64,000 nucleotides of DNA, taken from positions 11,278 to 75,277 of IMG/VR virus record IMGVR_UViG_3300022562_001605; one strand, 5' to 3'. A program made the position numbers and the translations under genes. Shown here piece by piece: positions 781 through 52,474 of this stretch (the first letter of the stretch is position 1; each line of letters opens with the position of its first letter). The notes below the pieces were generated by a model. It had not been told where the DNA came from and did no database searches. It saw nothing but the letters and a program-made list of their open reading frames with translations. The stretch comes from a virus. Taxonomy: Duplodnaviria; Caudoviricetes.

Positions 781-1566
781 ATGGTTGACTTCCATATCGT
801 AATCCCTTCGCGTTATAATAGTACACGGTTCCCGGGTAAACCGTTAGAATTAATTAATGGCATACCAATGATTAAACGTGTATATGACATAGCTTGTCAA
901 ACACCAGCAAAAACCATCACTATTGCTACAGATAGTGCGCTTATAGAAAGTACATGTAAGGGGTTTGGTGCAGATGTAATGTTCGTTGAAGAATATTGTC
1001 ATACTGGTACGGATCGTTTGGCGCAAATCGCAGATCGGATTGGTTGGGAAGACAATGAAATTGTTGTCAATTTACAAGGTGATGAACCACTCATGCCACC
1101 ATCTTTGTTAGTACAAGTAGCAGAAGAACTCGATTATTTTCAAGGTATTGATTGTGACATAGCCACATTATTTACCTATTGTACAGAATTTAACAATCCA
1201 AATAATGTCAAGGTCGTTTCAGATGAATATGGTATTGCTATGTATTTTAGTAGACATGATATACCACACAATGCTACTAGCCTTAAACGTCATATTGGGG
1301 TATATGCTTATCGTGCAAGATTTTTAAAGAGTTTTGCCGCTATGCGTGAATGTGGTGTTGAACGTGCAGAACACTTGGAACAGTTGCGTGCAATTTACCA
1401 TGGTGCTAAAATACGGGTAGAAGAAGCATTGGAAATACCAGGTCCAGATGTTAACGTTCCCGAAGATATAGTTAAGATAGAAGAAATTTTAAATCAGATA
1501 GAATTGCTAAAGCAAGAAGAATTAGCGAAACAAGATACTTTAACCGAAGAAGGTGAAACGTCATGA
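781..1566 (+). CDS. kdsB: 3-deoxy-manno-octulosonate cytidylyltransferase (CMP-Kdo synthetase)
   Basis: IPSRYNSTRFPGKPL, TGTDRL, VNLQGDEP, PNNVKVV, AMYFSR, RHIGVYAYR, EHLEQLR motifs. Confidence 0.92.
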   Translation: MVDFHIVIPSRYNSTRFPGKPLELINGIPMIKRVYDIACQTPAKTITIATDSALIESTCKGFGADVMFVEEYCHTGTDRLAQIADRIGWEDNEIVVNLQGDEPLMPPSLLVQVAEELDYFQGIDCDIATLFTYCTEFNNPNNVKVVSDEYGIAMYFSRHDIPHNATSLKRHIGVYAYRARFLKSFAAMRECGVERAEHLEQLRAIYHGAKIRVEEALEIPGPDVNVPEDIVKIEEILNQIELLKQEELAKQDTLTEEGETS

Positions 1567-2015
1567 AGATTATAGGATTTACACTTAACGTAGCTGTAAT
1601 ATCTACTACCATTTTTATTTGTAACATGCCGCAAGCTGATGCCGATCCGCAAATGGTACACGCGTATGAATTATCAAAATATGTTGACAAAATGACATCA
1701 GAATTTAAAAAAGAGCGAATTGCGGCGCTTTCAGAAGACATTAAAGCACTTGATAGGCAATTAACAATCCAGCATGATATTAAAAATATTGAATCTGGAA
1801 TCGCGGCGGCAGTTACTAATCATGACGTGAAATTAAAACCATATATTGTAATGCAGTTTTTTGATTATAATAATGATATTCGCGACGATGGTTGGGTAGA
1901 AGTTGATCGATTTGCATCTATTGAAGAGGCGCGTGCAGTTCGCGATAATATTGTGCGCAAATTACGAAGCGTTGGTAGTGATGAAGCCGTCACCATTCAT
2001 GTAGAGGTGTTGTAA
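1563..2015 (+). CDS. hypothetical protein with N-terminal signal peptide
   Basis: hydrophobic N-terminus, ADA cleavage-like site; ATGA overlap with kdsB. Confidence 0.6.
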   Translation: MKIIGFTLNVAVISTTIFICNMPQADADPQMVHAYELSKYVDKMTSEFKKERIAALSEDIKALDRQLTIQHDIKNIESGIAAAVTNHDVKLKPYIVMQFFDYNNDIRDDGWVEVDRFASIEEARAVRDNIVRKLRSVGSDEAVTIHVEVL

Positions 2016-2233
2016 TGTTTAAAAGTGTACTGGCGTATAAAGTTCTTACGGGAGTCTGCGCTGTTGGTGCAATTTTTCTTACGTTTCTCACCTTTGAACT
2101 TTTAAAAATTGAAAAAAATCCCACTGCACTATTTAGCAGCTTTGGAATTTTTCTATGTATTATAGGTTCTGGTTATTTTGCTGGAATGGCTACTTGCAGT
2201 GAAAAAGGTATTTTTGATATTGAAGAAAAGTGA
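2015..2233 (+). CDS. small two-TM membrane protein
   Basis: two hydrophobic segments; TAATG coupling. Confidence 0.6.
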   Translation: MFKSVLAYKVLTGVCAVGAIFLTFLTFELLKIEKNPTALFSSFGIFLCIIGSGYFAGMATCSEKGIFDIEEK

Positions 2234-2577
2234 ATAAAATGGTTGATTTCTTTATAGCATTTGCGTTATCATATGGTATACCTGAAACTTGGAACCTTAT
2301 AAACAGATTTTATGGGTGGAAAAATGATCCTAATAGGGTTCGGGTTACACATGATTGCATCGACGAAGATGAAATTTTCAGTTATTTAAAGACGCATAAG
2401 GATGATATAGAAAAGATAATAGGTGATATTACTAAGGAAACGATTTTTGATGTAAAACAAGTTAAAAAAGAAATTGAAGAAATACAAAAAACTTTTAAAA
2501 CGAACAAAAAAGACAAACAAAAAAAGAAAGGAAGAATACAAATAAGTTTCGGCGGTAAGAACAATAAACAATATTAA
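2230..2577 (+). CDS. hypothetical protein, Lys-rich C-terminus
   Basis: GTGA overlap, operon context. Confidence 0.55.
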   Translation: MNKMVDFFIAFALSYGIPETWNLINRFYGWKNDPNRVRVTHDCIDEDEIFSYLKTHKDDIEKIIGDITKETIFDVKQVKKEIEEIQKTFKTNKKDKQKKKGRIQISFGGKNNKQY

Positions 2578-26124: not shown

Positions 26125-26310
26125 TTATTTTACGTAAGAAACCCAATTGTTTCTAAATTGGCCACCACCGGTTTTGCAGCGTGCAGTAATTGTCTTTTCA
26201 GAGCCTGGAGTTCCAAGGCCGTTCAATGCTTTACTTGCAGCTCGTGCTGAAGAAAAAACGCGTACCTTGCCAGATTTGAGATTTTTAGATTTAACTTGTT
26301 TGGTTGTCAT
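26125..26310 (-). CDS. stand-alone NUMOD1-like DNA-binding protein
   Basis: VRVFSSARAASKALNG...I...CK. Confidence 0.5.
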   Translation of the reverse strand: MTTKQVKSKNLKSGKVRVFSSARAASKALNGLGTPGSEKTITARCKTGGGQFRNNWVSYVK

Positions 26311-26881
26311 TGTTATTTTCCTTTATATGTTTTATAATTATATCTACCCGTTCAGATAGTTCATCTGTTTCTATTATTGAAACTCTGTCACTATATACCA
26401 TTTGTTTGGTAATGTCAAGCATCGTATGATCTATTAACCTACTGTAATGTCTATTAATACTTCTAACACCGTCGCGTTCAACATCTGATACCAAAAGCGG
26501 TTTTATGTAAAAAACATGCTCGTAGGCATGACAATAATTCTTACAAGTTTCAAAATAGTTATCTAACCATTCATCAAATTTATTATATTGACCAAAGGCG
26601 ATTAAGGCATATGTAAATAAATCTGAAAAAGTTCTTTCAGTAAAATATATTTCGGAACTTAGGGTAGCTTCAATTTCATCGGCGTATTTTCTACGAACTA
26701 ATTCGTCTTGAAAGGCCAGTTTTAGGTCAAAATCTGCATTAACGACATCGAGAGTAACACCCCATTCGTCCAAGATTGACCGTGCGGTTTTTCTTTCAAT
26801 TACAGGATAACCTAATTTCTTAACTTCATTTAAGATAGTAGATTTTCCCGAACCTTGTGAACCTGCTATTGCTATTAACAT
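26291..26881 (-). CDS. P-loop nucleotide kinase/ATPase (AAA_28, NadR/thymidylate kinase-like)
   Basis: IAIAGSQGSGKST, FTERTFSD, DGVR; start moved to MLIAIAG. Confidence 0.8.
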   Translation of the reverse strand: MLIAIAGSQGSGKSTILNEVKKLGYPVIERKTARSILDEWGVTLDVVNADFDLKLAFQDELVRRKYADEIEATLSSEIYFTERTFSDLFTYALIAFGQYNKFDEWLDNYFETCKNYCHAYEHVFYIKPLLVSDVERDGVRSINRHYSRLIDHTMLDITKQMVYSDRVSIIETDELSERVDIIIKHIKENNNDNQTS

Positions 26882-26901
26882 ATTTTTCTTCTTATTATTA
26901 A

Positions 26902-27121
26902 TGGACGTTGATGAAAAGATCAACAAAAGGAAACGGTAACAAAAGGTATACAATCAACACAGATGAAACGGCGGCTCTAATTTTGGGGGACATTCAAAAC
27001 AAGGAACATATCTCCATAAAAGTTTGACCCATAACAATGCCATTATCAACTTAGGTTAACTATCATAGACCGAAGTCTATTGATAGCTGTTTCTTTTCAT
27101 ATCACCAATCAACAACGTCCA
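26902..27121 (-). ncRNA. candidate structured non-coding RNA
   Basis: nested long-range helices (26902-10/27113-21; 26911-19/27092-100) and a C(UUCG)G hairpin at 27060-27086 within a 245-nt gap. Confidence 0.5.
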
Positions 27122-27126
27122 AATCA

Positions 27127-27708
27127 TTAAATAGTTTGTGATTTTTCTAATAATGATACTATATCATCACTTATTTCAATTTTAGTTGTTGCATTTAAAG
27201 CGGCAAGGTTATCATCACATTGATCAACTAACCGCTGTGTTTCACGCAAAGATAAACATGCGTGATCATATAATGAATCTGTTATAGCAACAAAATCAAC
27301 AGAATCCGATCTTCCATAAAAATCATCTTTACCACTTTCCGCACGCATACGCTTTGCAGCGACTGTACGCGTAATAATATCTTCAGATTTTAAATCTTCG
27401 CCTGCGGTAACAATATCATCCCAAACGCAAAGAAGTTTGAGTAATTTATCGCGTTGTGCAATTATAGAATTTATACCGGATTGTTCATTAGCTACCTGAA
27501 TTGCGCGGCGAATATCGGCGCGAGCAGTGATTAACGCGACCATAGTTTCAACGCGTTCTCCAACTGCAACTGCTTCTTTTTCAATTATTTCTTTAACGGT
27601 AGAACCACTAAAAATGTTGATGTGGGAAATAAGGGGGTAACCCTTACGCATTCCTTTTTCTTGAATTCTACGTTCAATTCTACGTGCTTCTTTTAGTGAT
27701 ACTAACAT
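27127..27708 (-). CDS. long-helix hairpin protein
   Basis: SLKEARRIE...IRRAI..AN..GI...LAALNATTKIEI pattern, predominantly helical. Confidence 0.7.
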   Translation of the reverse strand: MLVSLKEARRIERRIQEKGMRKGYPLISHINIFSGSTVKEIIEKEAVAVGERVETMVALITARADIRRAIQVANEQSGINSIIAQRDKLLKLLCVWDDIVTAGEDLKSEDIITRTVAAKRMRAESGKDDFYGRSDSVDFVAITDSLYDHACLSLRETQRLVDQCDDNLAALNATTKIEISDDIVSLLEKSQTI

Positions 27709-28331
27709 TATATCTTTCTCCTGTTATAATCGTCGTAATAATCTTGAAATCTGTCTGGAACTACTAATTTCCAACCCGGGTATTTCAGTTTTAAACGATG
27801 GACGTGATTATCCATCATTCTATAAAATTCTTCTTGTGTCATATCTTGTTGTACGATAGTTAATTCATGATATCTACTATCATACGTAAAATCTGAAGTC
27901 AATCGTAATTTCTTTCCGTTTGAATACGCTTTACATAACCCAATATCAAAATATTGGTTAACGAATTTTTCGGGATTCATGTCTAAAATAATTATGTTAT
28001 AAACTGTACCGTCGTGTTTTTCAATTTCCCATACTAAATCAATATGGTTTCTGTGTGTACAACTGGCATCATCGCTATCCGATGCATTAAAAATAGAATC
28101 ACAAAGGATTCCATCTAAATTAAGGTCTAATAATTCAACCCAAAATTCTTCGTCATAGATATCCTCTTCACATCCCTCAGAAGATATGAAGAAATCATAA
28201 TCTTTTATTTCCTTATTGTGATAGGCGTCACGAATTGCACCGCCTGCTAAAATAACATCCGGTACATATTTTTTTATTTGTTTAAGAATTAAAAAACCGT
28301 GATCTAGTTTTTTTAAATTAGCAGCGTTCAC
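27708..28331 (-). CDS. nucleotidyltransferase (CCA-adding/poly(A) polymerase head-like)
   Basis: ILAGGAIRD...IKDYDFF, FDIGLCK; GTG start. Confidence 0.75.
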   Translation of the reverse strand: MNAANLKKLDHGFLILKQIKKYVPDVILAGGAIRDAYHNKEIKDYDFFISSEGCEEDIYDEEFWVELLDLNLDGILCDSIFNASDSDDASCTHRNHIDLVWEIEKHDGTVYNIIILDMNPEKFVNQYFDIGLCKAYSNGKKLRLTSDFTYDSRYHELTIVQQDMTQEEFYRMMDNHVHRLKLKYPGWKLVVPDRFQDYYDDYNRRKI

Positions 28332-51683: not shown

Positions 51684-51714
51684 AAAAAAGGGGAAATCCT
51701 AAGATTTCCCCTTT
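51684..51714 (-). terminator. intrinsic terminator of tmRNA gene
   Basis: AAAGGGGAAATC-4 nt-GATTTCCCCTTT with T-run on minus strand. Confidence 0.85.
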
Positions 51715-51716
51715 AA

Positions 51717-51970
51717 GACTATTGGGTTACAAGGCGTCACCCCCGGATGGGCTTACGCAGCTAAGCGAAGTTCCTCATCGTAAAATGCGTCGTTTGCATT
51801 TATGGTTTTTATGCCATTTTCGGTGGTCATCTGCCGTATCATCCACTTACCATTCCTTGCCCCGTCGAATCCAGTTCATCCCCAAAATATCGTCAAATTG
51901 CCAAAAATTGGTGGAGATGGGGGTGTCGAAACCCCGTCCGCAACTTGTACTAAGTTCGCTTCATATGATA
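51717..51970 (-). ncRNA. ssrA: circularly permuted (two-piece) tmRNA
   Basis: acceptor piece ending ...CATCTCCACCA (51909) precedes GGGGATG 5' end (51883); G3-U70 pair; tag ORF ANDAFYDEELRLAA* at 51797-51753. Confidence 0.92.
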
Positions 51971-51979
51971 ATAAATTAT

Positions 51980-52474
51980 TTATTCTTCACACCACCATTC
52001 TTCAAAAGGTTTATAATATTCTTCAATTATTTCAATTTCCCCTTCAAAATTAGGAAGATCCTTACACTGCAATCCCCCCACGTTATAAGATAGGGTTATG
52101 TGTGGTTTATATTTGTCAAAATCGTATGTTGCCCCGTGTTCATTCATTAAAAAGTTGTGTCGTTTGACCAGTTCTGGACATTTATATTTTAAAACGAGGC
52201 ACATATTAACAGTCCCGTCTTTGGTTGGCTGCGATGGCCATTTTACGAATTTGGTAAAATTACCGATCAGCGGGTTTTCAAATGTACCCGCCGGTTCATA
52301 GTCTGGAAGATGCTTTCTACTGAATAAAAGTGTGGTGTGAAGACTATCCGTTCTAACCCTATTGGGAATATTATTATCCTTAATATATTTTCTAATTGCT
52401 TTTTTGGTTTTTTCGCTAAACTTTACACCTGCATATGTACCCGTTTCTTTACTAATCGTTTCCATAATTATCAT
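51980..52474 (-). CDS. acb1: 2H phosphoesterase, T4 57B / anti-CBASS Acb1 homolog
   Basis: [43 protein letters not shown]..W align with T4 57B. Confidence 0.85.
   Translation of the reverse strand: [164 protein letters not shown]

Follow-up and report, generated by a model that had tools for sequence, protein, structure and literature searches.

Organization of the locus

In the window, by which we mean the whole 64,000-nucleotide stretch of viral DNA that was analyzed, a noncoding gap lies among genes that are all encoded on the minus strand. Upstream of it, a 207-amino-acid nucleotidyltransferase (27708 to 28331) carries the CCA-adding-enzyme-type head motif GGAIRD and matched phrog_1614 (E = 1e-15) and, weakly and over residues 28 to 52, the PolyA_pol family PF01743. 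Its stop codon overlaps the ATG of the next gene (27127 to 27708), which encodes a 193-amino-acid helical protein, the proposed RNA partner, with the basic N-terminal helix S-L-K-E-A-R-R-I-E-R-R-I. Downstream of the gap, a 196-amino-acid P-loop kinase of the AAA_28 type, NadR-like or dNMP-kinase-like, is encoded at 26291 to 26881 (PF13521, E = 1e-13). The helical-protein open reading frame (ORF) ends with a stop codon at 27127 to 27129 and the kinase ATG lies at 26881, leaving a gap of 245 nt (27126 to 26882); the median intergenic spacing in the window was 10 nt (108 greedily called ORFs).

The kinase ORF can be lengthened to a TTG at 26953, but this extension is spurious, being contradicted by a conserved MLIAI[AS]G start: the N terminus M-L-I-[AS]-I-[AS]-G-S-Q-G-S-G-K was exact in all nine of the kinase homologs fetched. 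The limits of the gap are therefore as given above, and the 245-nt gap that the preliminary description had obtained by placing the kinase start at MLIAIAG is borne out by these homologs. In the gap alignment, an ATG, TTG, or CTG shares one aligned position ahead of UCCCCC. A hidden small ORF was ruled out, the frames downstream in the window and in the syntenic metagenome locus L001 differing through 1- to 2-nt indels, and the gap is taken as noncoding because short ORFs occupy different frames in different loci. The preliminary description had left room for a kinase start at 26953 or a short ORF filling the gap; on examination, neither holds.

Other elements were observed at or near the locus. 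A T4-late-promoter-like sequence ahead of the kinase, TATAAATA, was present only in L003 and is therefore not conserved. Directly 3' of the kinase and overlapping its stop codon is a gene for a basic protein of 61 to 62 amino acids (26125 to 26310, minus strand), which is conserved in L001 (1400 to 1588), L003 (5390 to 5578), and L006 (2636 to 2824); visual inspection suggests a likeness to the small DNA-binding modules found in homing endonucleases, and it had no Pfam or PHROG match. In addition, the window contains a permuted (two-piece) tmRNA at 51687 to 52019 on the minus strand (Rfam RF04321, 125 bits).

Conservation and covariation of the gap sequence

Profile-guided scans identified four syntenic metagenome loci (L001, L002, L003, and L006) in which a helical gene, a gap of 242 to 251 nt, and the kinase gene follow one another, with the nucleotidyltransferase gene upstream in L002, L003, and L006. 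These four gaps and that of the window make up the marine RNA alignment, which comprises five sequences only and has a mean column identity of 75%. Pairwise identity of the RNA was 0.60 to 0.71, versus 0.40 to 0.60 at third codon positions of the flanking genes. Across 39 consensus pairs, 94.4% of cells were canonical, compared with 41 to 57% in controls slid by 1 to 3 columns; compensatory changes were present in five of the pairs, and the covariation score was equalled by none of 500 shuffles. The preliminary description had proposed this kind of comparison downstream of homologous genes, and its outcome favors the RNA, with 94.4% of pairs kept and five of them compensatory. Changes from U-A to U-G and from A-U to G-U suit the gene strand alone, and the RNA is therefore assigned to that strand.

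The minimum free energy (MFE) of folding gave z = -2.3 for the window RNA and z = -3.4 for the plus strand. Over 20 RNAs of the family, the mean z was -3.1, versus -0.6 for coding controls of the same length, with values near zero in three of the 20 stretches (L030, L033, and L038). A folded and conserved RNA of about 220 nt is thus genuinely present in the gap.

When the whole window was searched against Rfam 15 at the gathering threshold, nothing was found except the tmRNA at 51.7 kb, and positions 26700 to 27300 at E ≤ 10 gave only snoRNA noise; in the Rfam scan that the preliminary description had suggested, then, the RNA matches no Rfam 15 family. ARAGORN found no tRNA or tmRNA in the gap and no tRNA-like module. 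Furthermore, neither the region nor either protein had a blastn or tblastn match among 50,697 phage records, and a protein search and an RNA pattern search of IMG/VR returned nothing. Matches to the RNA pattern in three genome contigs (L012 to L014) are taken as chance because model R1, a covariance model built from the five marine RNAs, does not match them. No prior description of the protein-RNA pair was found in Rfam, Pfam, or the literature searched, and the RNA belongs to a family absent from Rfam 15.

Architecture of the RNA

The structured domain (26902 to 27121; this and all features below are on the minus strand) spans about 220 nt, begins 6 nt past the stop codon of the helical gene, and is conserved in L001, L002, L003, and L006. 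The elements of the consensus fold described below also appear when each of the five marine RNAs is folded singly by MFE. Its ends are joined by helix P1, in which the 5' strand UGGACGUUGUUG (27110 to 27121) forms 12 pairs with the 3' strand CAUCAACGUCCA (26902 to 26913); 93% of cells were paired, and U-A to U-G changes within the helix are compatible with the gene strand only. The long-range pairing of 27121 to 27113 with 26910 to 26902 that had been noted earlier is thus real, and the comparative data lengthen it to 12 bp. Inside P1, the purine-rich strand AUGAAA-A-GAAACA (27088 to 27100) and the pyrimidine-rich strand CGUUUC-C-UUUUGU (26923 to 26935) form P2, a helix with 12 pairs, two of them with compensatory changes, which was present in the MFE fold of all five sequences. 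A nested helix of AUGAAAAGA with UCUUUUCAU (UCUUUUCAH), described earlier at this level, was not conserved; the MFE and consensus folds use P2 instead, pairing AUGAAA/GAAAC (27100 to 27088) with GUUUC/UUUUGU (26935 to 26923). Together, P1 and P2 make up about 26 bp with internal loops, and in the window RNA no U-tract follows the closing helix.

Three further helical elements lie within the closed domain. P3 (27060 to 27086) is an irregular hairpin of 11 to 13 bp whose C(UUCG)G cap never varies; no two of the five RNAs share a stem sequence, yet the hairpin forms in each, and inner pairs swap between G-C and A-U, so that the UUCG hairpin first noticed in the window alone is real and has a covarying stem. 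The P4 domain (26973 to 27041) consists of outer GGC...GCC pairs and an inner UUAUGGG/CCCAAAA helix, has U-A in the window where other loci have C-G, and encloses P5 (27015 to 27003), a GGAG-loop-UUCC hairpin with a C-G/G-C swap. Between P4 and the 3' strand of P2 is a U/G-rich junction with repeated YUUGUY motifs, UGUGUUGAUUGUAUACCUUUUGUUACC (26935 to 26972), which is predicted to be mostly unpaired. YUGU occurred 2.9 times per 100 nt in the RNA and 0.5 times per 100 nt in the same-strand sequence of the upstream gene, and an enrichment of 5 to 10 times over the upstream gene was found in all clades. The short repeats reported earlier, CCUUUUGUU and CCGUUUC, are each present twice.

The helical protein family

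The AF2 model of the helical protein (pLDDT 88.6) consists of long helical hairpins and two short strands. The protein had no Pfam, NCBIfam, PADLOC, or PDB sequence match and only a weak match to phrog_25230. Beyond 21 close homologs, a profile search of 1.84 billion representatives assigned at least 925 clusters to the family at E ≤ 1e-3, nearly all of them full length. Most members come from large phages, and structural relatives occur in giant viruses: in BFVD, TM scores of 0.7 to 0.8 were obtained with unnamed proteins of about 190 amino acids from CcrColossus, an Erwinia phage, a Vibrio phage, and two giant viruses. The N-terminal helix carries the family signature M-x-[LVI]-[ST]-L-[RK]-x-A-[RH]-[RK]-[LI]-E-x-[RK]-I, and the Arg-rich motif is weaker in the Dolichocephalovirinae proteins.

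Fold searches returned generic helical hairpins and coiled coils and, in addition, 3kdq, a Corynebacterium diphtheriae protein of unknown function. It alone among the structural neighbors spanned the greater part of the model (Foldseek E = 0.02; VIA-align Z = 10.4), at an rmsd of 8 to 10 Å and 18% identity. The nearest named ESM Atlas cluster was that of DUF6847, itself without known function, and this Pfam family was touched by 1 of 122 members of the helical family (E = 0.005). The helical protein is an uncharacterized protein present in many large phages.

Joint presence and absence of the RNA and the helical gene

Related loci without the RNA indicated which of the neighboring genes it accompanies. 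In L009 and L010, the nucleotidyltransferase gene abuts the kinase gene, and the helical gene, the gap, and the RNA are all missing; in L008 and L011, the kinase gene occurs without the nucleotidyltransferase gene, the helical gene, or the RNA. Searches of the contigs of L008 to L011 with R1 and the protein profile found nothing, including in the complete 363-kb genome of L008. Conversely, L004 has the helical gene and lacks the nucleotidyltransferase gene upstream. Because L008 to L011 lack both the helical gene and the RNA, and L004 lacks only the nucleotidyltransferase gene, the unit gained or lost is the helical gene plus the RNA. The two are gained or lost as one cassette, and the module does not require the nucleotidyltransferase, which belongs to its surroundings. 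The proposal that a structured noncoding RNA (ncRNA) is tied to the helical gene upstream of it is upheld by this joint presence and absence and by its recurrence in four protein subfamilies.

Two other features were observed in these contigs. The syntenic block of L008 is closely preceded, on the opposite strand, by a 327-amino-acid ORF rich in repeated CxxC/H motifs (1403 to 2386, minus strand), which may be a mobile insertion. In L005, the stretch of 31 nt that follows the gene of a diverged helical homolog (1252 to 1282) opens with UGGGUGUGUAUUAC, in the position of P1 and with a different sequence; the contig stops short of the P1 partner strand.

Recurrence in distant phages

The same arrangement, a helical homolog, its stop codon, 5 to 10 nt, and then a structured region of 200 to 310 nt, was found in four diverged subfamilies whose proteins are mutually only about 20 to 25% identical. 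The RNA occupies this position in the window, L001, L002, L003, L006, nine Dolichocephalovirinae, at least 11 of 13 IMG/VR loci, L046, and L047.

In the Dolichocephalovirinae, CcrColossus gp272 matched profile A1 (E = 4e-13), and behind its gene, in an otherwise packed region, lie 284 unannotated nucleotides (JX100810, 201299 to 201582); in CcrPW and seven Brevundimonas jumbo phages, gaps of 286 to 314 nt follow the helical homolog. The alignment of these gaps contains a 5' hairpin, UUCG-capped hairpins, and a UGY-rich 3' region, and its closing helix has 14 bp, including seven compensatory pairs. Overall, 91.9% of cells were paired versus 39 to 52% after sliding, with 23 compensatory pairs versus at most seven. 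An Rfam search of seven of the loci at E ≤ 0.1 found nothing.

In 11 of 13 IMG/VR loci of the third subfamily, the stop codon is followed by at least 200 nt free of ORFs. These regions have long helices at their ends, hairpins capped by UUCG, and sequence blocks, GUUCGUUGUU among them, that the window RNA shares. Just after the helical gene of L036, R1 gave a full-length match (36.7 bits, E = 1.8e-7); at the expected position, it reached E = 0.005 in L041 and only E = 0.1 to 0.5 in L031, L038, and L039. The fourth subfamily is represented by L046, in which a 251-nt gap, closed by a helix and containing a UUCG hairpin as well as YUGU motifs, precedes a kinase gene whose product is 48% identical to the window kinase.

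A shared design was thus found, consisting of a long end-to-end closing helix, a UNCG-capped hairpin, and a YUUGUY-rich 3' half. Model R2, the Dolichocephalovirinae covariance model, detected no marine RNA, and the scores of R1 were nonsignificant in CcrColossus (7 bits) and L046 (3.7 bits). Because the covariance models fail to join the Dolichocephalovirinae and L046 to the marine RNAs, homology across the family is shown in part: it is statistical for the marine clade with L036 and L041 only, and for the Dolichocephalovirinae and L046 it rests on position and architecture.

The genes flanking the distant RNAs are otherwise unrelated; they encode an RNA ligase and a metallophosphoesterase, a dNMP kinase, ClpS, an HNH nuclease, endonuclease VII, an 81-amino-acid protein, and tRNAs. 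Several of these neighborhoods are worth recording individually. In L041, an RNA ligase (PF09414, E = 4e-21) and a calcineurin-like phosphoesterase are encoded immediately upstream of the helical gene (20 to 1498), an RNA-repair-type neighborhood that echoes the nucleotidyltransferase and kinase of the window. A suppressor-type tRNA predicted by ARAGORN (anticodon tta) lies just downstream of the RNA in L033 (2362 to 2435), and in L034, L036, and L039, tRNA-Met genes occur no more than 1.5 kb from the module. A phage-encoded homolog of the ClpS adaptor follows the RNA in L036 (2505 to 2837) and L038 (2442 to 2771).

The coupling is not obligatory, because PA5oct-like Pseudomonas phages carry the protein without the RNA: in these phages, the helical gene is followed by a genuine glutaredoxin gene and no structured RNA, and R1 found nothing in the PA5oct genome. 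Four ncRNAs of PA5oct are known from RNA-seq (PMC7318152); two of the four were inspected, and neither resembles the helical-gene RNA. The record of the PA5oct homolog EST35_0180 (L042; MK797984, 107445 to 108008) carries an ESI-MS/MS note, which places the protein among those identified in purified virions (PMC7318152), a possible sign that it is abundant or packaged.

Interpretation of the protein-RNA pair

The helical protein and the RNA look like a new protein-RNA pair. With a probability of about 0.5, the RNA would be a co-transcribed partner of the helical protein and would bind it. The RNA would be transcribed as a 3' extension of the helical-protein mRNA and would fold into a domain closed by the long purine/pyrimidine stem of its own 5' and 3' ends (P1 and P2). 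This stem could protect the RNA or act as an RNase III-type processing stalk from which the RNA is released, and the released RNA would then assemble with freshly synthesized protein into a ribonucleoprotein, with the basic N-terminal helix as the probable contact. The working surface would consist of the UNCG hairpin together with the exposed YUUGUY array, on which the partner protein or an RNA-binding factor of the host might dock at several sites. The neighborhoods, with a CCA-type nucleotidyltransferase, a P-loop kinase, an RNA ligase with a phosphoesterase, and tRNA genes, weakly hint at RNA or tRNA metabolism. A bolder and more tentative proposal, possible rather than probable, is that the protein and RNA represent a widespread, unrecognized class of viral ribonucleoprotein whose YUUGUY array titrates or redirects a host RNA-binding or tRNA-acting factor. 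The UGU core of YUUGUY resembles U33-G34-U35 of tRNAs with GUN anticodons.

Linkage to the upstream gene is equally expected, and exactly as predicted, if the RNA is a cis-acting 3' untranslated region (UTR) element of the helical mRNA, serving as a stabilizer, terminator, separator, or autoregulatory operator with no role in trans. The RNA always begins 5 to 10 nt past the stop codon and so has no room for a promoter of its own, and it resembles a large intrinsic terminator in that a U-rich run follows the closing helix in about half of the loci (e.g., L036, L039, L029, and L001). We nevertheless consider a purely cis-acting element somewhat unlikely: the U-tract is absent from the window and Dolichocephalovirinae versions, PA5oct expresses the helical protein without any such RNA, and a stabilizer or terminator needs neither 220 to 310 nt nor the conserved internal blocks, invariant UUCG hairpin, and multihelix covariation seen across protein subfamilies.

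It is rather doubtful, too, that the RNA is a stand-alone phage small RNA that acts as a sponge on a host factor through YUUGUY and hitchhikes next to the helical gene without binding its product. In every locus examined, the RNA is found only beside the helical family, with the other neighbors varying, and it is missing wherever the helical protein is missing. These observations must be set against the exposed short repeats, which are 5 to 10 times enriched over the neighboring gene in all clades and make the RNA formally like the sponge RNAs CsrB/RsmZ or CrcZ, and against the existence of the protein without the RNA in PA5oct.

A DNA-level element (an origin, a packaging or recombination site, or iterons with inverted repeats) or a decayed mobile-element remnant appears very unlikely. 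The cassette does resemble an insertion between the nucleotidyltransferase and kinase genes, with short repeats, terminal inverted repeats, and a plus strand that folds well (z = -3.4), but many conserved G-U pairs of the gene strand are C-A mismatches on the other strand, the compensatory changes keep pairing and not sequence, it is the gene strand that carries the UNCG tetraloops, and the nucleotides are more conserved than those at synonymous sites. Least probable is a leader or riboswitch of the downstream kinase, which would fit an RNA lying some 20 nt ahead of the kinase start in the marine clade and preceding a kinase gene in L046 as well, but is largely refuted by synteny, since four kinase homologs (L008 to L011) have no RNA, the RNA elsewhere precedes genes for an 81-amino-acid protein, ClpS, an HNH nuclease, endonuclease VII, or tRNAs, and at the RNA in the window neither a terminator nor a Shine-Dalgarno-sequestering platform was found, nor any Rfam riboswitch match.

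A covarying structured RNA that is not in Rfam is thus tied to a large, unannotated phage protein family that is not in Pfam. Because the pair occurs in culturable phages, namely CcrColossus and CcrPW, which grow on Caulobacter crescentus, and the Brevundimonas jumbo phages, the question of whether the RNA and protein interact is directly testable. Even the minimal outcome would be useful: one more RNA family and an initial lead on what a frequently occurring "hypothetical protein" of jumbo phages does.

Comparison with known systems

Individual features of the module recall several known RNAs. Long-range pairing that flanks an RNA inside a polycistronic transcript is typical of the RNase III stalks of rRNA precursors and T7 early mRNAs; here, cleavage is only presumed, and the stem (P1 of 12 bp and P2 of about 14 bp) contains internal loops. 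Several copies of a short motif in the loops and junctions of one RNA are also found in CsrB/RsmZ (GGA motifs) and CrcZ (A-rich motifs), whereas the motif of the present RNA is YUUGUY and the RNA is phage encoded and linked to a specific gene. Ro60 (Rsr) with its Y RNA or YrlA, which also occurs in some phages, likewise has a long stem of the 5' and 3' ends with the functional module distal to it, and the RNA-repair-type neighborhood is a further likeness; in contrast, no TROVE/Ro fold or match was found among the neighbors of the helical-gene RNA, which had no Y_RNA or YrlA match in Rfam and no tRNA-like module according to ARAGORN.

The preliminary description had suggested a toxin-antitoxin-like or ribonucleoprotein system, and the former suggestion is unsupported. 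Type III toxin-antitoxin systems (ToxIN, CptIN, and TenpIN) do combine a protein with an adjacent ncRNA in a phage-bacterium context. In those systems, however, the antitoxin RNA lies upstream, behind a terminator, whereas the helical-gene RNA is a single domain downstream of the gene, with repeats of 7- to 9-nt motifs only and no tandem repeats. Fold searches and Pfam point to no nuclease: no ToxN/AbiQ-type protein was among the fold-search listings, and the helical protein is all-helical in its model and had no PADLOC, Pfam, or PDB match. Furthermore, the module is single copy and resides in lytic jumbo phages, unlike type III toxin-antitoxin systems.

The OMEGA systems offer a further parallel. 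The HEARO RNA (IscB omega RNA) and the omega RNA or reRNA of TnpB are likewise structured RNAs of 200 to 300 nt locked to one adjacent protein family, and as with TnpB, the RNA begins at the 3' end of the ORF, presumably on the same transcript. The differences lie in the protein, a 190-amino-acid helical bundle with no RuvC or HNH domain in Pfam (122 members) and no nuclease in the Foldseek and VIA-align listings, and in the RNA, at which no transposon ends or variable guide segment were identified and which had no Rfam match. Protein-linked orphan RNAs have repeatedly become new machines, as HEARO did when it proved to be the guide RNA of IscB, and as did the retron ncRNAs and ToxI.
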